DNA of 64,000 nt from Clostridia bacterium (GTDB lineage: Bacteria; Bacillota; Clostridia; Christensenellales; CAG-138), in the NCBI GenBank assembly GCA_030527115.1, contig JAUNBM010000003.1:5837-69836 (forward strand), in the 5' to 3' direction. Both the position numbers and the translations under genes were made by a program. How positions within the stretch are numbered: the stretch's first letter is position 1; each line of letters begins with the position of its first letter. The notes beneath the pieces were generated by a model. The model was not told the DNA's origin. It saw only the letters and a list, made by a program, of their open reading frames with translations, and made no database searches. Below, in pieces: positions 6,665 to 57,358 of the stretch.

Positions 6665-8236
6665 ATGATAAAGAAGTATCTTGCCGCGCTCCTGTGCCTG
6701 CTGTTCATCTGCTCTTTTGCCGCCGTTCCGACCGCTTTGGCGGACGGCTACGATATGGGATCCATCAATGAAGAATTCGCGATTGTCGTCGACGCCGCGA
6801 ACCCTTCGGTAGCCCTGTACGGCATGGAGAAGAACGCCGACGCGATGGCGTATCCCGCAAGTACGACGAAGATTCTTACCTGTATAATCGCGCTGGAGCG
6901 TTGCTCGCTCGACGAGGTTGTTACCGTCAGCGCGACGGCAACGGATTTCTCCAGCCAGAATTCCCTGATGGGGCTGATAACCGACGAACAATGCACCATG
7001 CGCGACCTGCTCTACGGGCTGATGCTCGTATCCGGTAACGATGCGGCGGTCGCCATAGCCGAGCATATTTCGGGCTCGCAGGACGCATTTTCCGACCTTA
7101 TGAACAGCAAGGCGCGCGAGATAGGGATGACCAATTCCAACTTCATCACCCCCAACGGCCGGCATAAGGACGAGCATTATACCACGGCGCGCGACATGGC
7201 GATACTGACCGCCTATGCGCTTCAAAACACAACTTTTTGCGAGATAGTGGGAACCGTCTCCTATACGACGGAGCAAACTAACAAGTCCGCTTCGAGAACG
7301 ATGCAAAATTCCAACCGCCTGCTCGTGGATCTGCCCGCCTCCGACGGCTATACCCCCGTCTCCTGCCTCTATGAGGATGCGATAGGGGTAAAGACCGGAG
7401 ATACCGATAAGGCGGGCAAATGCCTCGTCGCCGCGGCTGAACGCGACGGAGTAACGCTTATAGCGGTTTTGCTCAACGGCTCGCAAACCAACTCCACGAT
7501 GACAACGGAGGAGCGGGACGCAAGGAACGCCCGCCGCTTCCAAGACGCCGCCGCCCTGTTCAACTATGCCTTTGATTCCATGGTTGAGACGGTCGCGGTG
7601 TCCGAGCTTATCACGCTGGGGCTTCCGACGACCTTCCAGTTGCAGGCGAACAATTATGCCGAGTCCGACGCGTATGCGGGCCAGTTTGACGCCGCCGCGC
7701 AAATAGACTCAACGCTCACGATTTCGCTCATGTCCAACGCGATGAGCAGTCTCAAGAGCCGGCTGTCCGAGCTGGCGGTTGTAAAAACCTCGACGATCTA
7801 TGCGCCCGTGCGCAACGGCGATATCGTCGGCACCGTGGATTATGTATTCGAGGACAGGGTGCTGTTCTCGGCAAATCTTATAGCCTCCCGCGATGTTGCG
7901 GAGGGCGTTATAGCCACCACTCCGCTTCCCACCGACACAGCCTCCGAACTGCAAACCGCCGATCCCTCGTCCGGAACGACAGGGCTGATTTCAAGCCCAA
8001 CGTCCACGCCGGGGACTTCCGGAGATGGGGAGGGAGACGGCTCATGGCTCCTTTATCTGGTAATCGGAGCAGTTATCCTGGTGCTTCTGCTGATCGTCGC
8101 AGTATTGATAATCCGTGCGGTGAACGAGCGCAAACGCAGGCTCGCGAGGGAGAAAAGACGGAGACAGATGCAAAGGCGAATGCAGGATCAACAGCGCGTA
8201 TACCGGGACCGCCAAAGACCTACTGATAAATTTTGA
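6665..8236 (+). CDS. D-alanyl-D-alanine carboxypeptidase (PBP5/DacB-like) with C-terminal TM helix and basic tail
   Basis: Signal peptide, then ASTTK (SxxK), SGND (SxN) and KTGDT (KTG). The start could be GTG 6659 or ATG 6665. Confidence 0.85.
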   Translation: MIKKYLAALLCLLFICSFAAVPTALADGYDMGSINEEFAIVVDAANPSVALYGMEKNADAMAYPASTTKILTCIIALERCSLDEVVTVSATATDFSSQNSLMGLITDEQCTMRDLLYGLMLVSGNDAAVAIAEHISGSQDAFSDLMNSKAREIGMTNSNFITPNGRHKDEHYTTARDMAILTAYALQNTTFCEIVGTVSYTTEQTNKSASRTMQNSNRLLVDLPASDGYTPVSCLYEDAIGVKTGDTDKAGKCLVAAAERDGVTLIAVLLNGSQTNSTMTTEERDARNARRFQDAAALFNYAFDSMVETVAVSELITLGLPTTFQLQANNYAESDAYAGQFDAAAQIDSTLTISLMSNAMSSLKSRLSELAVVKTSTIYAPVRNGDIVGTVDYVFEDRVLFSANLIASRDVAEGVIATTPLPTDTASELQTADPSSGTTGLISSPTSTPGTSGDGEGDGSWLLYLVIGAVILVLLLIVAVLIIRAVNERKRRLAREKRRRQMQRRMQDQQRVYRDRQRPTDKF

Positions 8237-8384
8237 CATACTCGCGCGCCAAGCGCGGCGCCACGTTGACCGTTTTAATCGTGCCGGTCGCAAAAAGCGC
8301 GGGCAACGCTTTGCTTTTATGCCCAAAGCCTGCTTCTTATGTTGCCAACAGCGCGTTTTTTTCAAAAAAGTTGGAATAAAGGTG

Positions 8385-8413
8385 TTGACAAGCGAAAAAT
8401 TACTGTTTATAAT
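8385..8413 (+). promoter_or_regulatory. sigma-A-type promoter for the tRNA pair
   Basis: TTGACA (8385-8390), 17 nt, TATAAT (8408-8413). The tRNA starts 12 nt further on. Confidence 0.7.
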
Positions 8414-8424
8414 AAACTTCGTTC

Positions 8425-8500
8425 GCGGGAGTAGCTCATTTGGTAGAGCGCAGCCTTGCCAAGGCTGAGGTGGCGGGTTCGAGCCCCGTCTCCCGCTCCA
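8425..8500 (+). tRNA. tRNA-Gly (anticodon GCC), CCA encoded
   Basis: The cloverleaf folds by hand: acceptor GCGGGAG/CTCCCGC, anticodon arm CAGCC-TTGCCAA-GGCTG, T-arm GGCGGGTTCGAGCCCCGTC. Confidence 0.9.
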
Positions 8501-8506
8501 TTTTTT

Positions 8507-8583
8507 GCCTCCTTAGCTCAGCTGGCTAGAGCACCTGACTCTTAATCAGGGTGTCCAGGGTTCGAATCCCTGAGGGGGTACCA
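8507..8583 (+). tRNA. tRNA-Lys (anticodon CTT), CCA encoded
   Basis: D-arm GCTCAGCTGGCTAGAGC, anticodon arm CCTGA-CTCTTAA-TCAGG, T-arm CAGGGTTCGAATCCCTG. The acceptor stem has two G-U pairs. Confidence 0.85.
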
Positions 8584-8607
8584 GGTCGCGATAGACTTCG
8601 CGGTTCG

Positions 8608-8638
8608 TCCCGTTCGGATAATCCGGACGGGATTTATT
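8608..8638 (+). terminator. intrinsic terminator after the tRNAs
   Basis: TCCCGTTCGG-ATAAT-CCGGACGGGA followed by TTTATT. Confidence 0.65.
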
Positions 8639-8714
8639 GTTAGAGTGCCCTCCCTAAAGCCAGAAAAGTCACTTTATCCTTTTCAAACCTTTCCGATTGT
8701 GCTATTATTTTGTT

Positions 8715-9023
8715 ATGAACAGCTTTGAACTCATTTATTCCGTTGTCAAACGCATTCCGCGTGGCAGGGTGGCGACCTACGGCCAGATCGCCGGGCTTGC
8801 GGGGAATCCGCGCTGGTCGCGGGTCGTGGGCTATGCGCTTCACGTCAATCCCGATCCGGCGACTATCCCGTGTCACCGCGTGGTAAACCGGCGCGGCGAA
8901 CCGTCGAAAGCCTTTGTTTTCGGGGGCGAGAACCGCCAAATAGAACTGCTTGAGCGCGAAGGGGTCGTTATTTGCGACGGGCATGTGGATCTGGAGAAGT
9001 ATCTTTGGAGGGCGGCACAATGA
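8715..9023 (+). CDS. MGMT-family DNA-binding domain protein (stand-alone O6-alkylguanine transferase C-terminal domain, active-site Cys retained)
   Basis: RIPRGRVATYGQIA...IPCHRVV (PCHR motif), ~100 aa. Confidence 0.8.
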   Translation: MNSFELIYSVVKRIPRGRVATYGQIAGLAGNPRWSRVVGYALHVNPDPATIPCHRVVNRRGEPSKAFVFGGENRQIELLEREGVVICDGHVDLEKYLWRAAQ

Positions 9024-9781
9024 AAACGCTTATCACGGAAAGGCTCAAACTGCGCGAATGGACGATGGAGGACGCTCCGGACCTGTTTGAATACGCGCAA
9101 AATCCCCGGGTCGGCCTGAATGCGGGCTGGTATCCGCACACAAGCCTTCGCGATTCGGAGGAATACATAAGCCTTGCTTCCAAGGCGGGGGACGTTTGGG
9201 CGATTGAGCATATCGAACAGGGCAAAGTCATAGGGGGAATAGGCCTGCATGCGGGCGGCCTGAGAAAAGCCGATTGGGCGCGGGAGCTGGGCTATGTGCT
9301 GAGCGAAGCATATTGGGGCAGGGGCTTGATGAGCGAGGCGGTCAACGCGGTATTGAAATTCGGCTTCGAGGAGCTGGAGCTTAAGATAATCAGCGTCAGG
9401 CACTTTAACGGAAACGACCGTAGCAGGCGGGTAATTCAAAAGAGCGGGTTCCGCTTTGAGGGCGTTGCGTCGACGGCGCTGTTCTTCGACGGCAGGGTAA
9501 TAGACGAGTGGTGCTATTCCATTACCTGCGATGAGTGGCGGGGCAAGCGGGGCAGGCCCATACAAAACCACCGTTTCTATCAAAATCTGCAATGCGAGTT
9601 CTTTCCCTGCCATCCGACCGAGGACGCGGAACGCTTCTCATGCCAGTTCTGCTACTGTCCGCTGTATGCCCGGGAGGACTGCGGCGGATGCTACGTTGTT
9701 TTGGAAAACGGAATCAAGGATTGCTCCAGGTGCCTGAAGCCGCATTACGACTACGACGGGATAGTGAAGCGCCTCCGATGA
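9020..9781 (+). CDS. GNAT N-acetyltransferase (RimJ/RimL-like) fused to a C-terminal cysteine-rich small domain
   Basis: The ATG overlaps the upstream TGA (ATGA). TERLKLREWTMEDAPDLFEYAQNP...GYVLSEAYWGRGLMSEAV...NDRSRRVIQKSGFRFEG, then CEFFPCHP...FSCQFCYCPLYAREDCGGCY...KDCSRCLKPH. Confidence 0.8.
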   Translation: MKTLITERLKLREWTMEDAPDLFEYAQNPRVGLNAGWYPHTSLRDSEEYISLASKAGDVWAIEHIEQGKVIGGIGLHAGGLRKADWARELGYVLSEAYWGRGLMSEAVNAVLKFGFEELELKIISVRHFNGNDRSRRVIQKSGFRFEGVASTALFFDGRVIDEWCYSITCDEWRGKRGRPIQNHRFYQNLQCEFFPCHPTEDAERFSCQFCYCPLYAREDCGGCYVVLENGIKDCSRCLKPHYDYDGIVKRLR

Positions 9782-10482
9782 AGCTAATCGTTACCCGATA
9801 CGAATATCCCTGTAAAGAGGGGCGCGGGCTCAAAATAGCGCAGGTCTCGGATCTGCACAACGAGGAGTTCAAAAATGACGAGCTTTTGCACAGGCTTTGC
9901 GCGGAAAAACCGGACCTAATCGCAGTCACCGGAGATTTTTTCAACAGGCACCGCCCATATGACGAGGGGCCCGCCTTAAGCTTTTTTCGGGAGGCCGCCA
10001 AGCGGTTCAAGGTGTTTTGTATAGAGGGAAACCATGAACGCGAGATAGGGGAGCGCTTGAGATGGCGGGAAAAATTCGCCACAATGGGCGCAATCGTGCT
10101 GGACAACGCCTTTGTGGATTTAACCGTTGGCGATTGCAGGCTTCGGATAGCCGGAGCTATGGAGAGGGCGGCGGTGGAGAGTATAGCCGCCATGCAGACG
10201 GAGGAACGCCTCACCGTAACGCTGTCCCACAGGGCGGAGAGATTCGAGGATTATGTTGCCGCAGGATGCAGGCTGACACTCTGCGGTCATGCGCACGGAG
10301 GGCAGATGCGGCCCTTCGGAATCGGGCTGTATTCGCCCGAGCAGGGGGTTTTCCCAAAGTATACAAAGGGCGTATACCGCCGCGGCGCGACCACGATGAT
10401 AGTGTCAACGGGGCTGGGAAACACGGTTGGAGTTCCCCGACTGTGGAATCCGCGTGAACTTGTCCTTATTTCCTTGCGATAA
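9778..10482 (+). CDS. metallophosphoesterase (calcineurin-like)
   Basis: ATGA overlap with the GNAT gene. SDLH, TGDF, GNHE and GHAHGGQ motifs. The 81 upstream codons of the track ORF overlap the GNAT gene. Confidence 0.85.
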   Translation: MKLIVTRYEYPCKEGRGLKIAQVSDLHNEEFKNDELLHRLCAEKPDLIAVTGDFFNRHRPYDEGPALSFFREAAKRFKVFCIEGNHEREIGERLRWREKFATMGAIVLDNAFVDLTVGDCRLRIAGAMERAAVESIAAMQTEERLTVTLSHRAERFEDYVAAGCRLTLCGHAHGGQMRPFGIGLYSPEQGVFPKYTKGVYRRGATTMIVSTGLGNTVGVPRLWNPRELVLISLR

Positions 10483-10528: not shown

Positions 10529-11401
10529 GTGTTTTCAGCAGCAATAGAGAAGGTAGCGGGCTTTACCCGTCCGATATATACGATTCGCAGAAGGTATCCC
10601 GACAACACGATAATCAAGGACTGCGGCACGATGTTCTTTGTCAACGACCGGGGAACGGCGCTTACGGCGAAGCATGTCGCCTCAACTTTCCCTGCCGCCG
10701 AGCAGCTTGACAAAAAGTATAAGGAGTTTTTGGCGGAGCGGAGCAGACTGAAGCATGACGCCACCTTTCAATTCGAGGAGAAGTTGCTTGCCAAGCGGTA
10801 CGGCTTTACAAAGGATTCGATCACCCAGGTTTGCAACTCGTTTGTCAACTGTGTGCAGGGCGAGAAAGGCTTTACCATAACGGCGCATCCAAAGTATGAC
10901 CTGGCGCTGATTCAGTTTAACGCGCCCGGCAAGTATCTCTATTACGGCCACGCCGTATTTGCCAAGAGCGCGCCCAAGGTGGGAACGAGCGTATGCCGCC
11001 TCAGCTATCCTTTCCCCGAGTTTACCAACTATCGGTTCAACGAGGAGCAGGACAGGATTGAGTTCACGCAGGAGGGAAAGACGGCGACCCCCTATTTTCC
11101 GGTAGACGGGATGATCACCCGCTATCTCAGCGATTCCGACAGGCTTTTCGCCATCGAGACAAGCACCCCCGGTATGTTGGGGAACAGCGGAGGCCCGATG
11201 TTTGACAGGAACGGTGTCGTCTGCGGGATGCAGTTTGCCATAGCTACGATAAGGCAAACTATCAATGCGCCGAACAGGAAGGACGCGAGCGGGAATCCGG
11301 TGGAAGCTCAGACCTTTGAATACAGACTGGGCAACTGCATCCATGTGGATGTTATAAAGGATTTTCTCCGCGCAAACGGCGTTACGTTTACGGAGGAATG
11401 A
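10529..11401 (+). CDS. trypsin-like (S1/chymotrypsin fold) serine peptidase without signal peptide
   Basis: GTG start after GGAGACGGAGAAG. TAKHV (His), YDLALIQ (Asp) and GNSGGPMFD (Ser). Confidence 0.75.
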   Translation: MFSAAIEKVAGFTRPIYTIRRRYPDNTIIKDCGTMFFVNDRGTALTAKHVASTFPAAEQLDKKYKEFLAERSRLKHDATFQFEEKLLAKRYGFTKDSITQVCNSFVNCVQGEKGFTITAHPKYDLALIQFNAPGKYLYYGHAVFAKSAPKVGTSVCRLSYPFPEFTNYRFNEEQDRIEFTQEGKTATPYFPVDGMITRYLSDSDRLFAIETSTPGMLGNSGGPMFDRNGVVCGMQFAIATIRQTINAPNRKDASGNPVEAQTFEYRLGNCIHVDVIKDFLRANGVTFTEE

Positions 11402-11452: not shown

Positions 11453-11481
11453 TTGACTGATTGAGCCGGAGAAAGTATAAT
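11453..11481 (+). promoter_or_regulatory. sigma-A-type promoter of the dockerin-sortase gene
   Basis: TTGACT, 17 nt, TATAAT. Confidence 0.65.
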
Positions 11482-11510
11482 CAATGGTAGTAAAATAAGG
11501 GAGAATTCTA

Positions 11511-13040
11511 ATGAAAAAGAAGATTTCTTTTTTGCTCGTTCTGATGATGGCTATCGGCGTTTTTTGCGCCATGCCGCTTGCGGCGGCCGCCGAAAGCCAG
11601 ATAGTAGGCGATGCAGATATGAACGGAGCAATTGAGGCGAACGATGCGGCGACGGTTTTGCGCCATGTTGTGCGCATCAGCGAACTGACGGGACAAGCGC
11701 TGATAAATGCGGACGCAAACTGCGACGGCGAAGTGAATTCGCAGGACAGCGCGCTGATACTGCGCTATGTAGTCAAGCTGGAAACGGTTCTCCCGCCTTC
11801 GGGAGGAACGCTGGTTACCCCGCCGATAACCAATACTCCCCCTCCGACGGCGACCCCAACGCCAACTCCAACTCCAACTCCGTTTATCAACCGCTCGCTG
11901 GGCGACGTCGACCTTAATGGAAATATTGAGGCGGCGGACGCTTCGATGATCCTGAGATATTTGGTCCGGCTGACGGATCTTACCGACATACAGCTCAAGA
12001 ATGCTGACGTCACCTTTGACGAGCAGGTGTCCGCGTCCGACGCTGCACGCATCTTGAGATATATTGTCAGGCTGATCAGCGATTTGAATATCTGGCCCGA
12101 TCCCACCGCTGTTCCAACGGTAACTCCAACGCCCACGGCAACTCCGGTGCCAACTAACAAGGACGGACTGCCCGCCGCGGGAACCAAGGGCCTCATCGTG
12201 CCGGACGACGATCCCAACTACGAAAGAATAATGGGCTACTATCTCAACCGCAGTCTGTGGACTAACGAGCTGAACCCGAACAATTCGAGCTATTCGGAAA
12301 GCGAGTTTTGGACCTCGTCGATACCTCAACGCTCGTTCCGCTTTATTACCGTAAATATGCAGGGCAAGACGGAACGCGGCCTCAACGGAGCGGTCTACGA
12401 TTATACCGCGAACAACGAGGACATAATCGGATGGGTGCGCATGGCGTTCTACGGCAAGGAAAACAATAGAAGCCGGCCCTATACCGCGAACATCGGGATA
12501 AGCGATTATCGCGTTATAGACGAACCTATAATGTACGACCCCTATGGCAGGCAGTATTATTTCGATCATACCTGCTACGGACTTGAAACCGCCGGCGGCT
12601 CGCTGATGGCATACTATGATACGCTGGCGAAGAATATCGTTGTCACGGGCCACAATTCGAGGCCGACCAAGACGCATTTCCATCATCTGCACACGATGCA
12701 GAGCGGGGCGAAGTATTATGGTTCGAGCATCAATCCCGACAACTATATCTTCGACATCTCCATCTTCGGGCTTACCAAGTGGCAGGTGTGGGCGATGTAT
12801 GAGACTTCGGAGAACGAGCCGTCCTCAACGCTGTTGTACAACATAAGCTCCTCCTGCGGAACGGACGGCAATGTGCAAAACTGGATCAATACCCAGCTTA
12901 CAAGGAGCGAGGTGAACTTCAAGGTTTCCGTCTCCACGAACGACCAGTTCTTGACGCTGTACACCTGCGCCGACGCCTATGACAGCAGCGATGATACGAC
13001 TCAGGCGAGGCTGTATGTGTTCCTGAAGTATGTTGGATAG
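11511..13040 (+). CDS. class B sortase with N-terminal signal peptide and two dockerin type-I modules
   Basis: - Signal peptide MKKKISFLLVLMMAIGVFCAMPLAAAAE.
- Dockerin 1: GDADMNGAIEANDAATVLRHVV + NADANCDGEVNSQDSALILRYVV.
- TP linker.
- Dockerin 2: GDVDLNGNIEAADASMILRYLV + NADVTFDEQVSASDAARILRYIV.
- Catalytic part: NEDIIGWVRM, YYFDH, NIVVTGHNSR (His), LTLYTCAD (Cys), ARLYVF (Arg). Confidence 0.8.
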   Translation: MKKKISFLLVLMMAIGVFCAMPLAAAAESQIVGDADMNGAIEANDAATVLRHVVRISELTGQALINADANCDGEVNSQDSALILRYVVKLETVLPPSGGTLVTPPITNTPPPTATPTPTPTPTPFINRSLGDVDLNGNIEAADASMILRYLVRLTDLTDIQLKNADVTFDEQVSASDAARILRYIVRLISDLNIWPDPTAVPTVTPTPTATPVPTNKDGLPAAGTKGLIVPDDDPNYERIMGYYLNRSLWTNELNPNNSSYSESEFWTSSIPQRSFRFITVNMQGKTERGLNGAVYDYTANNEDIIGWVRMAFYGKENNRSRPYTANIGISDYRVIDEPIMYDPYGRQYYFDHTCYGLETAGGSLMAYYDTLAKNIVVTGHNSRPTKTHFHHLHTMQSGAKYYGSSINPDNYIFDISIFGLTKWQVWAMYETSENEPSSTLLYNISSSCGTDGNVQNWINTQLTRSEVNFKVSVSTNDQFLTLYTCADAYDSSDDTTQARLYVFLKYVG

Positions 13041-13077: not shown

Positions 13078-13119
13078 AGCCGCCATTTCGCCCTCAAGGG
13101 AGCTGTGGCGGCTCTTTTG
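13078..13119 (+). terminator. intrinsic terminator
   Basis: AGCCGCCA...TGGCGGCT stem followed by CTTTTG. Confidence 0.6.
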
Positions 13120-51063: not shown

Positions 51064-51228
51064 TACGGTGAATACATGGTAGCTTGCCGATAGTGCCTAT
51101 TTGCGGGCTTCCATGGAAAGCTTAAAACTTGGCTTCGCTTTTGTCCCGTGAAATTTCAAAAAGGGGAGGGAAGGGGAGCGGGGGCTTTGAGCAAAAAAAC
51201 AAAAACAAATAGGAGGAAAAACACACTT

Positions 51229-54200
51229 ATGAAGAAAGCATTGGCACTTATCCTTTCTCTGGCAATGGTTCTTTGCTTGATTCCGGCGGTGGCAGGCGCT
51301 GTTGGTGAAACGGCGACTGCGATGACGACTGCTCCCGTGGATGGAGATCAGGTCGTTATCTATTATCCCGCGGGTGCAACCGCAGTCAGCAACACCGAGT
51401 ACCTTTATGAGTCGCGCGGCTATTGGCAGCTTGAGCCCGTTGAGGTTACGGTTACTGAAGGCGCAATGACCGTTCCGGAGGGCGCCGCTGTATTGGACGT
51501 CACCGTTGATGAAAACGGCAATTACACCTTCGTCGATCAGAACGGCGAGTATCTGACGGCAGGCGAAACCGGTAACAACCTCACCTTCGAGGCTGCCGCA
51601 AGCGATTACAGCCTGTGGATTCCCGAAGATGCAGGAAACGGCAACTTCTATATCAAGAATGTAAACGCCGCTTACAACGAGAGACCCCAGTATCTGGAGT
51701 TCTACAACAACTTCACCACCTATGGCTTCAATGATAGCAATACGGCTATCTACACCTTCACCTTCTTTAAGGTAGAAGCATCCGACCCCGGCCCCATTGA
51801 CCCGCCTCCGGCTGAGAAATCCGATGATATCGTAATTCTCTACAGCAATGACGTGCATTGCGGCATCGGCGAAGAGATTGAAGAAGATGGCACGCTTGTT
51901 AGCTACAGCGGCGGCTATGCGGCTCTCGCGGCTGTCAAGAAGGGCCTTGAGGCGACCCACAACAACGTCCTGCTCGTAGACGCGGGCGACAGCATTCAGG
52001 GCGCGCCGATTGGCACGATTTCCCGCGGTTCCTACATCATCGACATCATGAACTATGTCGGCTATGACGTATCGGCAGTCGGCAACCATGAGTTCGATTA
52101 TGGCATGGATCGCTTCTTCGAGCTGGAAGCGCTGGCTAACTTCCCGTTCGTGGCGGCAAACTTCATGGATCTCACCGCCAATGAGCCGGTTCTGGACGCA
52201 TACAGCGTATTTACCCTTGGCGACGTCAAGGTAGCCTTCGTTGGTATCTCGACCCCCGAAACCCTGACTAAGTCCACCCCGACTTACTTCCAGGATGCGG
52301 AGGGCAACTGGATCTATGATTTCGCGAACGAGAGCTTTGAGACCTTCATCGCCGCGATTCAGCCCGCCATCGATGCGGCTAAAGTTGAAGTCGGCGAGAC
52401 CGGCTATGTTATAGCCCTTGCCCACTTGGGCATTGACCCGTCCTCTACCCCCTGGACTTCCACCGAGATGATCGCGGCGGTATCCGGCCTTGACGCCGTT
52501 ATCGACGGACACTCCCACAGCACGGTTGAAAACCAGATAGTAAAAGATAAGGACGGCAACGATGTAGTCCTCACCCAGACCGGCACGAAGCTTGAAAATG
52601 TTGGCAAGATGACGATTACCGCAGAAGGCATCGTCACCGAGCTTATTCCTCTGGAGGAAGCCGAGGTTGACAAGGACACCAGCGACTACCTGGTAAGCAT
52701 CGCGAGCCTGTACAACGCCGATCTGCAGACCGTCGTTGCGCACACCAACTTCGATCTCACGGTAAACGATCCCGCGACCGGAAGCCGTATCATTCGCAGC
52801 CAGGAAACCAACCTGGGCGACCTCGCGGCGGATGCATATCGCGATCAGCTCGATTCCGACATAGCGTTTGTCAACGGCGGCGGCGTTCGTGCGAACATCC
52901 CTGCAGGCGACATTACCTATGGCCAGATCCTGACGGTACACCCGTTCGGCAACATGGCATGCTTGGTTGAAGTTACCGGCCAGCAGGTTCTCGACGCCCT
53001 TGAGTGGGGCAACAGAATGGTTGGCGTTGGCGAGAACGGCGGCTTTTTGCAGGTATCCGGAATCACCTTTGAGGTTGACCCGAATGTTGAAAACGGTTGC
53101 GTCGTAGATGCGGCTGGAATGTGGGCCGGTCATACCGGCGAGTACAGGGTTAAGAACGTAATGGTCGGAGGAGAGCCTCTGGATCTCGAAGCGAAATATA
53201 CGCTGGCTTCCCACAACTATATGCTCAAGAGCCAGGGCGACGGCTATGCCATGTTTGGAACAGCCAACGTTACCCTGCTCCGTGACGAAGTCCTGATCGA
53301 CAATCAGGTTCTCATCAACTACATCCAGGGCACGCTGGGCGGCGAAATCCCCGAAGTCTATGCAAACCCCTATGGCCAGGGCAGAATCACCATCCTGCCG
53401 ATAGTTGAGGGCGAACCCGAGTATGACTACTATATTGCCGGCGACAGAGGCTATGAGTCCGAATTCACGACCGATGCAAACGGCAACCTGGTCTTCAACC
53501 TGACGCTTGGCGAGCTGGGCGAGAATGAGCTTATCAGCGCGCTTGAGTTTGACCTGGCATGGGATGCAACCAAGCTGGAGCTCGTATCCGCCGTTGCTAA
53601 CCCCTTGACGAGCAGGAATGCTTTCGGCGCTGAAGTCGCTGTGAACCCCGAGCTTAACGTGGATGCGGTTATGCCCAACACGAGCGAGATCTACTATGCG
53701 GTTGCCACGAGCGTTGGCGGCTGGTTCGCAGAGGATCTCAGCAACGTCGTCATGACCCTGACCTTCCAGATCAAGGACGGAGTTGCCGATGGCGAACAGC
53801 TCGACGTTGAGTTCACCAAGTTCAAGTTCTCCGTTGTCAACAGCGAAACCCAGACGATAGTCGATATCCCCGAGGATCAAGTCGGCGCATATGACGGCTA
53901 TATCATTGTCGGCAACGCCCCCGCTCCGGTCGTTGACAAGAGCGCTCTGATCGCGCTTGATGCGCAGTATGACGCAGTTATGACCACCGTTGTAGCGAGC
54001 GCGAACGGCATGGATCTGACCGCAGGCACGCTCTGGCTGACCGAGGCGGAGATTGCCACGAACACCGCCGCTCTGGCGGCTTCCCAGGCAGTCATCGACA
54101 ATGCGGAAGCAACTCAGGAAGAGGTCGATGCGGCATATCAGGCATTGCTTGCGGCCTTCATTCAGCCCAAGACCGTCGTTCTCGACTATACCGCGCTGAA

Positions 54201-54471
54201 TGCGGCTCTCGCCGCCGCGAATGAGTTCGTTGCGAGCGAAGACTTTGCAAACTGCTCCGAGGAGCTCCAGAAGGCATGGACGGATGCGATTGCGGCGGCT
54301 ACCGCTCTGATCGACAATCCGGAAGCCACCCAGAACGCCATCAACGCCGCGACTGACGCGCTGAACGCGCTCAAGAAGACCGGCGAGTCCGCAACCTACA
54401 TCATCTTTGCGGGCATAGCTGTTCTGGCAATGCTTGGCATGGCTGTCGTGGTTCGCCGCAGATTCAACTAA
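51229..54471 (+). CDS. cell-surface bifunctional metallophosphatase/5'-nucleotidase with cohesin-like module, two FIVAR-like repeats and C-terminal sorting signal
   Basis: - ATG follows AGGAGG, then signal peptide MKKALALILSLAMVLCLIPAVAGA.
- Metallophosphatase/nucleotidase motifs: NDVHCG, GDSIQG, GNHEFDYG, DGHSH, ETNLGDLAADAYR, NGGGVRA.
- Cohesin-like module: ISALEFDLAWDATKLELVSA...MTLTFQIKDGVADGEQLDVEF...GYIIVG.
- FIVAR-like: ATQEEVDAAYQALLAAF and ATQNAINAATDALNAL.
- Sorting signal: LKKTGE + hydrophobic helix + RRRFN. Confidence 0.85.
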   Translation: MKKALALILSLAMVLCLIPAVAGAVGETATAMTTAPVDGDQVVIYYPAGATAVSNTEYLYESRGYWQLEPVEVTVTEGAMTVPEGAAVLDVTVDENGNYTFVDQNGEYLTAGETGNNLTFEAAASDYSLWIPEDAGNGNFYIKNVNAAYNERPQYLEFYNNFTTYGFNDSNTAIYTFTFFKVEASDPGPIDPPPAEKSDDIVILYSNDVHCGIGEEIEEDGTLVSYSGGYAALAAVKKGLEATHNNVLLVDAGDSIQGAPIGTISRGSYIIDIMNYVGYDVSAVGNHEFDYGMDRFFELEALANFPFVAANFMDLTANEPVLDAYSVFTLGDVKVAFVGISTPETLTKSTPTYFQDAEGNWIYDFANESFETFIAAIQPAIDAAKVEVGETGYVIALAHLGIDPSSTPWTSTEMIAAVSGLDAVIDGHSHSTVENQIVKDKDGNDVVLTQTGTKLENVGKMTITAEGIVTELIPLEEAEVDKDTSDYLVSIASLYNADLQTVVAHTNFDLTVNDPATGSRIIRSQETNLGDLAADAYRDQLDSDIAFVNGGGVRANIPAGDITYGQILTVHPFGNMACLVEVTGQQVLDALEWGNRMVGVGENGGFLQVSGITFEVDPNVENGCVVDAAGMWAGHTGEYRVKNVMVGGEPLDLEAKYTLASHNYMLKSQGDGYAMFGTANVTLLRDEVLIDNQVLINYIQGTLGGEIPEVYANPYGQGRITILPIVEGEPEYDYYIAGDRGYESEFTTDANGNLVFNLTLGELGENELISALEFDLAWDATKLELVSAVANPLTSRNAFGAEVAVNPELNVDAVMPNTSEIYYAVATSVGGWFAEDLSNVVMTLTFQIKDGVADGEQLDVEFTKFKFSVVNSETQTIVDIPEDQVGAYDGYIIVGNAPAPVVDKSALIALDAQYDAVMTTVVASANGMDLTAGTLWLTEAEIATNTAALAASQAVIDNAEATQEEVDAAYQALLAAFIQPKTVVLDYTALNAALAAANEFVASEDFANCSEELQKAWTDAIAAATALIDNPEATQNAINAATDALNALKKTGESATYIIFAGIAVLAMLGMAVVVRRRFN

Positions 54472-54904: not shown

Positions 54905-57358
54905 TTGATTGGAGACTCGGCAAGAAGAATATTGAGCTTTGTGGTAGTCGTGCTTTTCACGATAGCTTTATTGTTGCCGTTTGGACTTGCAACTTCGGAT
55001 GCGTTGGCTGAGACCGCTCAGCTCCCTGAAGTCGCGGGCATGGATTCCGAGATAACGATGGAGCAACCGAGCGATGCTTCGTCCACCGAACCAAGCGCCG
55101 AGCCTACGGCAGAACCAAGTACCGAACCGTCCGAGAGCCCGCAACCGGGCGAATTTGAAATTGATACGACTAAGAAGATCGCGTTTGAACTGGGCTATAC
55201 TTTGAGCGACGGCACGGAGATATATGTGTCGCTGGGCGAGCTTACGCTTGCCGAGCTTGAGGCGCGAACTCCCGCCATTGAACACACCTATTCATATTTG
55301 AACGGAGGAAACGCGGAACAGGGCGTTGCCCCCACGGTTACCTATGTCACGGCAAAGGGCTATACTCTGCGCCAGCTCCTTGACAGCACGAATACGACGA
55401 TTGAAGACAGCCTTATCGGTAGCATAAGCTTTGGACAGGATAAGCTGGCAGGCTCGCTGTTCAGCTCCAAGAACAGCTATGTTGACCTGCACAAGAACCT
55501 GATGGTCGGGGACGACGGACAGCTCTACGCGGCGGATATGCAGGTTTTGTCGGTACCTGCGCTGTTTGCGATATACGAGAGTAGCGAGACCTATGCGCTG
55601 GAGGCGGAAACTCCGTCGGCCACGACGGCGAACGCGCAAAACGATACCTTCCACCTGCTCACAGGGCAGGAAAGCGCCACGCAAACGGGGGTATATTCGA
55701 GCCATCGCGATATCCGCACCCTTAGAATCACCTTGAAGGACACTCCGGTGCTTACGCTTCCGAGCGACGATTTCAACATGATAGTGAACGAGCGCAAGCA
55801 GGTTGACGTTGGAGTTTCGAGCGGAGTGCATCAGGGGCTGACGGACGCTTATATCAACCATGTGCTGAGCTGGCAAAGCTCGGACGAAAGCGTGGTGAGC
55901 GTCGCTTCCGGCGAGCTTACGGCGCACAAGGCGGGTACTGCGACGATTACGGCGACTGCCGGAGGAACGGCTTCGAGCTTCAACGTGACGGTTTTCGGAA
56001 CCTACGCCATAAGCTATAATTCCAACGTGAGCGGGATTGACGTGGCGGATATGCCCGCCATGCAGACGAAGATTCACGGCACGAACATACAGATTTCAGA
56101 CAAGATTCCAACGCGGGCGGACGGCTATGTTTTCGCGGGCTGGAACACGGCGGCTGACGGAAGCGGAACGAGCTATCAGCCCTCCGCCGTCTATTCGGAC
56201 AATGCGGATTTAAGCCTCTTTGCCCAATGGGAGACGGCGAAGATAACCATAACCTTTGATCCGAGCCTGCCTTCAGGGGTTACGGCTCAGCCAACCAACT
56301 GGCCCACCAACGTGAGCATAGCGCCGGGGAGCGAATTTACCTTCCCTGCGACCGATCCCGTGCTGTCCGGCTATGAGTTCCGCGGCTGGCAGTATACTAT
56401 CAACAAGGTTACCTATACGAAATACGCGGGCAATAAGGAGAGCGGTTTTACCGAGGACGTAACGGTGAGTGCGCTTTGGATTGAGAAGGAGGCGGTTCAG
56501 TATACCGTAACGCTCAAGGCGAACGGCGGTATGTTTTTAATCACCTCAACGACTACGGGCGATTCCACGCATACGCTGACCGTAAACGCCGGAACCCAAA
56601 TCCGCCTCAGCAACTATAACTGCAAAAAGAGCGGAAGCTATCCTACGAACTGGAAGGGCAGCGACGGTAAAACCTATTCAAACTCCGTGTATATCACGAT
56701 AAATTCCAACATGACGTTTACGGCTCAGTGGACGACAACGACGACCACGACGAAGTATACGATAACCTATAACGGCAATGCGGACGGAGTTACCAATGTT
56801 CCGGGCAAGCAAACCAAGAGCAAGGGCGCATCGCTCACGATATCCTCGCAGGTGCCGGTTCGGAGCGGCTACACCTTTGCCGGGTGGAATACCTCCAAGA
56901 CCGGAACGGGCACCTCGTATAAGGCGGGAACGGTATACCGCACCGACAGTAATCTAACGCTCTATGCCCAGTGGACGCAGGTGACGGCAAGCCCAACGCC
57001 TACGGCGACCCCAACGCCCACCCCCACGCCCACGCCAACCCCGACGCCGATACCGGACGCCGTTTTGGACGATGAGGCGGTGATCAATCCGATCGAGGTG
57101 AGCCTGAAGCCCGTCGTTTACTTCGGGAACGACGAGCCAACGCCGACCCCGCCGGAGGGGGAGGCAACTGCAATACCGACACTGCGACCCACCGCCGAGC
57201 CTACGCCTGAGCCGGAAAAGACGGCGGAGGAACTGGAAATCGAGGAGGCAGAGGAGGCGAAGCAACGCTCAACCTATGCCATCGTCGGAGTATCAAACGG
57301 AATCTTGCTGATCGCGGGAAGCTGTCTTGCGGTAGTCAAGTTTAACATACAGCTATAA
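54905..57358 (+). CDS. large surface protein: signal peptide, unassigned N-terminal module, Big_2-like domain, four Listeria-Bacteroides (Flg_new-type) repeats, Thr/Pro/Glu-rich spacer, C-terminal TM anchor
   Basis: - TTG start 8 nt after GGGAGGG; extended -10 TGCTATAAT at 54866-54874.
- VVSVASGELTAHKAGTATITATAGG (Big_2-like).
- Repeats with GYVFAGWNT, GYEFRGWQ, GYTFAGWNT cores ending (F/Y)AQW(E/T).
- ASPTPTATPTPTPTPTPTPTP spacer.
- TYAIVGVSNGILLIAGSCLAVVKF C-terminal helix. Confidence 0.8.
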   Translation: MIGDSARRILSFVVVVLFTIALLLPFGLATSDALAETAQLPEVAGMDSEITMEQPSDASSTEPSAEPTAEPSTEPSESPQPGEFEIDTTKKIAFELGYTLSDGTEIYVSLGELTLAELEARTPAIEHTYSYLNGGNAEQGVAPTVTYVTAKGYTLRQLLDSTNTTIEDSLIGSISFGQDKLAGSLFSSKNSYVDLHKNLMVGDDGQLYAADMQVLSVPALFAIYESSETYALEAETPSATTANAQNDTFHLLTGQESATQTGVYSSHRDIRTLRITLKDTPVLTLPSDDFNMIVNERKQVDVGVSSGVHQGLTDAYINHVLSWQSSDESVVSVASGELTAHKAGTATITATAGGTASSFNVTVFGTYAISYNSNVSGIDVADMPAMQTKIHGTNIQISDKIPTRADGYVFAGWNTAADGSGTSYQPSAVYSDNADLSLFAQWETAKITITFDPSLPSGVTAQPTNWPTNVSIAPGSEFTFPATDPVLSGYEFRGWQYTINKVTYTKYAGNKESGFTEDVTVSALWIEKEAVQYTVTLKANGGMFLITSTTTGDSTHTLTVNAGTQIRLSNYNCKKSGSYPTNWKGSDGKTYSNSVYITINSNMTFTAQWTTTTTTTKYTITYNGNADGVTNVPGKQTKSKGASLTISSQVPVRSGYTFAGWNTSKTGTGTSYKAGTVYRTDSNLTLYAQWTQVTASPTPTATPTPTPTPTPTPTPIPDAVLDDEAVINPIEVSLKPVVYFGNDEPTPTPPEGEATAIPTLRPTAEPTPEPEKTAEELEIEEAEEAKQRSTYAIVGVSNGILLIAGSCLAVVKFNIQL

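Follow-up and report, generated by a model that had tools for sequence, protein, structure and literature searches.

Can a sortase work at the cell surface without being held in the membrane by an anchor of its own? Sortases are understood as membrane-anchored enzymes, acting where Sec-exported substrates meet lipid II. The question is raised by a gene in a 64,000-nucleotide stretch of contig JAUNBM010000003.1 from a Clostridia bacterium (the window, from here on), which encodes a protein of 509 residues composed of a signal peptide, two dockerin type I modules and a C-terminal domain of class B sortase type. This architecture had been proposed in a preliminary description made from the sequence, and it is borne out by Pfam, Foldseek, a profile search of the PDB and hhalign. 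The NCBI record of exactly this protein, encoded on a 74.8-kb contig of a Clostridia metagenome-assembled genome (MAG), is MDO4564146.1. It illustrates an annotation gap – the protein is named by its dockerins alone ("dockerin type I domain-containing protein"), and the public annotation overlooks the sortase domain.

Domain architecture of the protein

The motifs NEDIIGW, YYFDH, GHN (with His381), TLYTC (with Cys486) and ARLYVF (with Arg500), which the preliminary description had taken as marks of a class B sortase, are all found in the translation. When a profile built from ten family members (A2) was compared with all PDB sequences, it matched class B sortase chains only (E 2e-12 to 2e-7); the best match was SrtB of Clostridioides difficile, in which GHN falls on GHN and TLYTC on TLSTC. 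With this result the homology to sortases is no longer in doubt. The AlphaFold2 (AF2) model has a predicted local distance difference test (pLDDT) score of 70–93 over the catalytic domain, and the top 19 structures found with it by Foldseek are all SrtB (E 7e-11 to 6e-7, TM-score on the target 0.59–0.76), with SrtA, C, E and F appearing only at about 1e-3 or worse. The domain was also aligned by hhalign with the SrtB domain of P0146, a comparator whose sortase domain passes the TIGR03064 (class B sortase) cutoff with 158 bits. This alignment has a probability of 98.5% and places GHNSR on GHNMR, TLYTC on TLQTC and ARLYVF on ARYIVM, so that all three catalytic residues are aligned with P0146, and the His and the Cys with C. 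difficile SrtB as well. Within the close family, His381 and Cys486 never vary, and in 84 wider relatives His, Cys and Arg each reach at least 90% conservation.

With the class B sortases (MEROPS C60B; SrtB of Staphylococcus aureus, C. difficile and Clostridium perfringens, and Spy0129 of Streptococcus pyogenes) the protein shares the predicted fold, the His/Cys/Arg triad at GHN, TLxTC and the Arg of beta8, and, in the model, the long helical His-to-Cys segment that is typical of the class. It differs from them in having an extra N-terminal subdomain of about 70 residues and two insertions, located by the hhalign alignment to P0146 after IGW (17 residues) and between Cys and Arg (6 residues); in having a cleavable-type signal and two dockerins in place of the N-terminal membrane anchor; and in having no adjacent substrate gene, and no isd or pilus locus beside it. 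The assignment to class B therefore stands by fold, motifs and aligned triad, and fails as a strict SrtB assignment, with scores under the curated SrtB and Pfam thresholds. On profile and model evidence, the catalytic domain descends from class B sortases and belongs to a divergent SrtB-like clade, not being an SrtB equivalog. It presumably works as class B sortases do.

The N-terminal half matches Pfam Dockerin_1 (PF00404) in two stretches, with 69.5 bits against a cutoff of 22.9 (E 2.9e-19), in agreement with the two complete modules of the preliminary description; the EF-hand-like repeats DADMNGAIEAND and DANCDGEVNSQD that it quoted are present in the translation. Each module holds two 22-residue segments of a Ca loop plus a helix, as is the rule for dockerin type I. 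In an alignment of the query's modules with those of ten homologues, Ca loops 1–3 of the four have the canonical form D-x-[DN]-x-[DN]-G...D, and ILRY-type helices follow. The fourth loop, DVTFDEQVSASD, is non-canonical, carrying T as its third residue and E as its sixth, a departure also seen in the closest homologues P0001 and P0002. The linkers, described earlier as (TP)n, are indeed rich in Pro and Thr and about 32 residues long. Among PDB sequences, those closest to the N-terminal half are the dockerin region of Amy16 from the Ruminococcus bromii amylosome (PDB 9QF9) and the double dockerin of a Clostridium thermocellum serine protease. The first of these matches linker, dockerin 2 and linker with an E-value of 3e-9 and shares the ILRY-type helices, though in Amy16 the dockerin is joined to a GH13 amylase, and the query comes from a Clostridia MAG of about 54% GC.

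At the extreme N-terminus, MKKK is followed by a hydrophobic core of about 16 residues, a Pro at position −6, and A-A-A before E. The cleavage-type site AAA-E noted in the preliminary description follows the −3/−1 rule in the query and also in all ten dockerin-clade homologues, in which position −1 is Ala and position −3 is taken by a small residue. In these ten homologues, the first dockerin begins 3–12 residues after the signal region. Judged by its sequence, the N-terminus is not the transmembrane signal-anchor of class B sortases, having a c-region of signal-peptidase-I type and a dockerin within 5 residues. Because the −3/−1 rule holds throughout the clade and a dockerin lies within 3–12 residues of the hydrophobic core, the signal peptide is probably cleaved between AAA and E, and the mature protein would then begin at Glu28.

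A clade with interchangeable targeting modules

The apparent absence of an anchor is shared by nearly all of the family. A word-index search found nine relatives – seven with dockerins, one with SH3 and one lipoprotein. A profile search of 1.84 billion cluster representatives returned 86 at E<1e-30 and 162 at E<1e-10. The sortase-like domain is C-terminal in all members of this wider family, which shares the signature GHNSR..FHxLH..Q, WQVWAMYE, TCGD...SRLYxFL and scores 50–83 bits on TIGR03064. Pfam scans, which took in 84 of the 86 representatives, recognized Sortase in 43, RCC1 repeats in 32, SH3_3 in 31 and Dockerin_1 in 21. According to a hidden Markov model built from the dockerins of the query, full N-terminal dockerins, either one or two, occur only in the closest clade (P0001, P0002, P0003, P0005, P0006, P0007, P0010, P0011, P0012 and P0020). 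In several proteins of RCC1 type, the propeller and the catalytic domain are separated by a weak dockerin-like module. All hosts that were identified are uncultured Clostridia MAGs (Eubacteriales, Oscillospiraceae, Christensenella-like ones, and rumen, digester and termite-gut bins); the nearest is 69% identical.

A heuristic tally of N-termini in about 99 full-length representatives gave signal-peptide-like sequences in the ten dockerin types and in 27 SH3 types, and a lipobox in at least 26 RCC1 types. Just one of the approximately 99 had the look of a classical short sortase with a transmembrane anchor. The SH3b- and RCC1-fused relatives thus have the same general plan as the query – a secretion or lipoprotein signal, an N-terminal binding module and the same C-terminal catalytic domain – and differ in the targeting module, which is SH3b or a lipobox plus RCC1 propeller, and in being often encoded as tandem pairs. 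Throughout the family, the catalytic domain is paired with swappable targeting modules (dockerin, SH3b, or lipoprotein signal plus RCC1 propeller) instead of a transmembrane anchor. This comparison favors the earlier suggestion of dockerins that stand in for the membrane anchor or add to it.

One relative, P0004, had seemed to be a clade member without dockerins. It proved to be a truncated gene call: two dockerins are encoded upstream in another frame (L005 9204–10948), and the related locus L010 has one intact open reading frame (ORF) of 528 codons with two dockerins (7221–8807).

The clade of Clostridia MAG proteins is apparently undescribed. In the literature searched, no paper joined "class B sortase" with "dockerin", and none dealt with a domain architecture of sortase, dockerin and SH3. 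No sortase is among the dockerin proteins listed in PMC12484212 and PMC2930009, and where sortase comes up in cellulosome papers and in a review from 2025, its sole role is the anchoring of scaffoldins (PMC12484212, PMC2930009). What is new, this suggests, is an SrtB-like enzyme with modular, non-membrane targeting, in a sizeable clade of which no description was found.

Genomic setting and candidate partners

The gene lies between genes that are mostly housekeeping. Upstream are an acetyltransferase, a metallophosphoesterase and a Trypsin_2 peptidase; downstream are xseA/xseB, ispA and dxs, named from their translations alone. No isd or pilus locus lies beside it, and a search of the 64-kb window for further sortase-like, dockerin or cohesin-like ORFs gave none. 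An antisense ORF of 394 residues that overlaps the gene (11508–12692, minus strand) is an unsupported shadow ORF. The gene has a GC content of 0.51–0.57, the same as its flanks, which makes recent horizontal acquisition unlikely.

According to the preliminary description, the gene had its own consensus promoter and terminator. The promoter matches the sigma-70 pattern at 11 of 12 positions, though such matches occurred in the scanned 2-kb region at close to the rate of chance (3 found, 2.3 expected). For the terminator, "consensus" was an overstatement: the hairpin downstream of the gene was not picked up by a pattern scan for terminators, and it is a plausible, non-consensus one (Table 1).

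Table 1. Positions of the features discussed, in the window unless a related locus (L) is named
Feature	Position	Strand	Basis or remark
Dockerin/sortase-like ORF, 509 aa	11511–13040	+	ATG start
Sigma-70-like promoter, TTGACT-17-TATAAT	11453–11481	+	promoter pattern scan; 11/12 matches
Shine-Dalgarno AAGGGAG	11497–11503	+	read from sequence; 7 nt before ATG
Predicted signal peptide, aa 1–27 (MKKK, hydrophobic core, PLAAAA/E)	11511–11591	+	−3/−1 small-residue rule
Dockerin type I module 1, aa 29–95	11595–11795	+	PF00404; both Ca loops canonical
Pro/Thr-rich linker 1, aa 96–127	11796–11891	+	sequence; AF2 pLDDT <50
Dockerin type I module 2, aa 128–193	11892–12089	+	Pfam best stretch 130–185; module alignment
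Pro/Thr-rich linker 2, aa 194–226, with conserved PTNxxGLP motif	12090–12188	+	sequence
Class-B-like sortase-fold domain, aa 227–509, and stop codon	12189–13040	+	profile, AF2, Foldseek, hhalign
Catalytic His381 codon (GHN)	12651–12653	+	matched to GHN in C. difficile SrtB and in the P0146 SrtB domain
Catalytic Cys486 codon (TLYTC)	12966–12968	+	aligns with TLSTC and TLQTC
Arg500 codon (ARLYVF)	13008–13010	+	aligns with ARYIVM of the P0146 SrtB domain
Terminator-like hairpin, 9-bp GC-rich stem (13078–13113), then CUUUUG	13078–13119	+	fold z-score −2.1
Trypsin_2 peptidase gene, without signal peptide	10529–11401	+	Pfam; directly upstream of the enzyme gene
Surface 5'-nucleotidase gene	51148–54471	+	likely true start Met at 51229
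Cohesin-like module of the 5'-nucleotidase, speculative docking partner	53431–53985	+	Pfam and Foldseek
Sorting-signal-like tail (LKKTG-ES, hydrophobic helix, RRRFN), speculative substrate	54370–54468	+	sequence
Trypsin_2 genes elsewhere	L001 3475–4344; L003 195–1073; L010 6126–7118; L012 6351–7307
Arg-to-His homologue P0005	L003 1133–2608		sequence
Arg-to-His homologue P0007	L004 6694–7920		sequence
Tandem sortase-like pairs	L001 5950–7050; L012 8830–10014; L016–L018, L020, L021, L023
Two-transmembrane proteins	L016 3907–4944; L017 6887–7327; L018 6211–7345; L020 6933–7394; L023 5828–6810
CAP-dockerin proteins	L005 12459–14255; L010 10273–12114

Five species (that of the window and four others) have the Trypsin_2 gene directly upstream and co-oriented, with outer flanks that differ from one to the next; the loci of P0003 and P0007, from two species, have no Trypsin_2 gene. 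An all-against-all clustering of neighbors in the dockerin clade found it to be the sole conserved neighbor and found no conserved substrate gene. The Trypsin_2 protein was considered as a substrate or partner and was set aside, as it lacks a signal peptide; the relationship is one of association only.

The candidate partner in the window is a surface 5'-nucleotidase encoded 40 kb from the enzyme gene. It consists of a signal peptide, an N-terminal domain of about 200 residues without assignment, Metallophos, 5_nucleotid_C, a cohesin-like module and FIVAR, and its C-terminal tail with LKKTG is the only sorting-signal-like tail among the ORFs of the window. The cohesin-like module, reported earlier at about 53440–53920, turned out to be a borderline case. 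On Pfam Cohesin (PF00963) it scores 22.8 bits, short of the 24.1 required, with an E-value of 1e-4 and 99 of the 139 profile positions covered. Foldseek, run on a single-sequence AF2 model of low confidence (pLDDT 45), gave type-I cohesins as nearly all of the leading matches, the best at E 1.6e-4. A word-index search found no homologues of the module, and it can therefore not be claimed as a conserved partner across the clade. In the 32 related loci, no cohesin-like ORF was found with the single-sequence query, which is a weak one. A second surface protein, of 817 residues (54905–57358, plus strand), has Big_2 and Listeria-Bacteroides (Flg_new) repeats and a Pro/Thr-rich stalk, and it ends in a C-terminal hydrophobic helix with no recognizable sorting motif.

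Several other arrangements were seen in the loci of relatives. Tandem paralogue pairs are frequent in the family and common in the SH3 group; the closest relative has a two-dockerin gene followed by a one-dockerin paralogue, and the gene in the window is a single copy. Upstream of SH3-type pairs there are one or two copies of a protein of about 150 residues with two transmembrane segments, a conserved APRAAFEFDEEE-like acidic tail and no Pfam match. In nine Clostridia MAG loci, several of them from the rumen (L022–L031), an RCC1-type sortase-like gene is directly followed by two related ORFs. In L024 (e.g. 8696–9931), one of these is clearly recognized as signal peptidase I (139.7 bits on Peptidase_S26) and the other is weakly S26-like, with 21.7 bits against a gathering score of 22.9. 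Finally, a 598-residue protein that combines a CAP (cysteine-rich secretory protein) domain with a dockerin at its C-terminus is encoded 1.5 kb downstream of the dockerin-sortase gene in two loci, and dockerins are therefore found on other non-glycosidase proteins in these organisms too.

Possible modes of action and their meaning

The sequence and model data tilt slightly towards an exported class-B-type sortase that is docked through its two dockerins on cohesin-bearing surface proteins and there cleaves and transfers surface proteins. After Sec export and a cut by signal peptidase at AAA-E, the mature N-terminus would consist of the two dockerins, which would attach the enzyme non-covalently to cohesin-bearing proteins of the cell surface. 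The flexible Pro/Thr linkers of about 30 residues could give the catalytic domain reach. The predicted cysteine transpeptidase (His381, Cys486, Arg500) would then cut a sorting-signal-like motif in surface proteins and pass these on to an amine acceptor.

Positioning by cohesin and dockerin, as judged from the sequence, is plausible, and by analogy the nearest precedent for the docking is the double dockerin of the C. thermocellum S8 protease Clo1313_0689 (PDB 8X39/8X3A), which binds a cell-bound scaffoldin (PMC12484212). Ruminococcus flavefaciens has dockerin-bearing peptidases and transglutaminase-like proteins (PMC2930009). Like the query, these are non-glycosidase, protein-modifying enzymes with dockerins, thought to be anchored on scaffoldins and to process surface proteins; unlike it, they are subtilisin or papain types and not of the sortase fold. 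Clo1313_0689 also has two tandem dockerins, packed together, whereas those of the query are N-terminal and split by the Pro/Thr linker of about 32 residues.

A number of points weigh against this picture of a scaffold-docked transpeptidase. The catalytic domain scores 24.8 bits on Pfam Sortase (PF04203), under the gathering score of 26.6, and 29 bits on TIGR03064, where the cutoff is 153.75; the profile check that supported Dockerin_1 thus fell short for Pfam Sortase. No substrate gene adjoins the enzyme gene, the neighbors being housekeeping genes and a cytoplasmic-looking peptidase. The one candidate cohesin has borderline scores and, without detectable homologues, cannot serve as a partner conserved across the clade; dockerin-like modules are also present in organisms without cohesins. 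A sortase off the membrane would sit far from lipid II, the usual acceptor. Two of the ten close homologues, P0005 and P0007, have His in place of the catalytic Arg (AHLYVF, compared with ARLYVF), with the His and Cys kept.

A bolder and rather unlikely proposal takes the query and its SH3b and RCC1 relatives together as an undescribed class of anchorless sortases, targeted by their modules, that act off the membrane and independently of lipid II. The dockerin version would covalently ligate or cross-link surface proteins on a cohesin scaffold, with the docking module, and not a shared place in the membrane, setting the substrate specificity. It might in this way fix cohesin–dockerin assemblies, for instance, or link proteins to one another or to mature peptidoglycan.

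The distance from lipid II has another possible consequence, which is also rather improbable: the protein could be a scaffold-docked cysteine endopeptidase, a sheddase or maturation protease whose acyl-enzyme is resolved by water and which trims or releases surface and scaffold proteins. Hydrolysis is the default outcome for sortases away from lipid II, and the Arg-to-His change in P0005 and P0007 shows that a triad of transpeptidation type is not strictly needed. Dockerin-bearing peptidases are, moreover, thought to process cellulosomal proteins (PMC12484212, PMC2930009). The fold and motifs, however, are those of a transpeptidase, and the Arg is kept in at least 90% of the family.

A membrane-anchored sortase, in which the hydrophobic segment is an uncleaved type-II signal anchor and the dockerins recruit cohesin-bearing substrates such as the LKKTG-tailed 5'-nucleotidase, is distinctly unlikely. 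Classical sortases do carry such an N-terminal anchor, a membrane position would keep the enzyme near lipid II, and the one cohesin-like module of the window is in the one protein with a sorting-signal-like tail. Against this stand the Ala at −1 and small residue at −3 in ten of ten clade members and the Pro at −6, and the lipoboxes or AXA-type signals, rather than anchors, of other family members. There is also no spacer from the bilayer: if the segment were kept as an anchor, the dockerin, starting 3–12 residues past the hydrophobic core, would be pressed against the bilayer, too near the membrane to be usable.

It is very unlikely that the dockerins bind no cohesin at all, and instead act as Ca-binding stabilizing or spacer modules or bind another ligand, with the enzyme secreted or otherwise retained. 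Dockerin-like modules that have no partner are common outside cellulosomes, the last of the four Ca loops is degenerate, and neither the 64-kb window nor any of the related loci searched yielded a strong cohesin. The dockerins are nevertheless complete and high-scoring, with ILRY-type helices as in functional ruminococcal dockerins and the Amy16 dockerin region as best PDB match; in addition, there are the CAP-dockerin proteins in the loci of relatives and the cohesin-like module in the window. A dead pseudo-sortase serving as a binding or structural protein, which the scores under the family cutoffs and the large insertions relative to SrtB might bring to mind, is scarcely credible given the invariant His381 and Cys486, the nearly invariant Arg500 and the flanking motifs kept across proteins that are 40–70% identical.

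Returning to the docked sortase, the arrangement suggests an undescribed way of positioning an enzyme that attaches surface proteins. If the replacement of the anchor in this clade by a dockerin, an SH3b domain or a lipidated RCC1 propeller is real, sortase chemistry would be delivered by modular targeting, which raises the question of the acceptor that is used away from the membrane. The enzymes known so far from cohesin–dockerin assemblies are chiefly glycoside hydrolases, with a few peptidases among them; if the docked sortase is real, such assemblies on the cell surface would gain a protein-ligating or protein-processing activity, and the clade would offer naturally "addressable" sortases for protein engineering.

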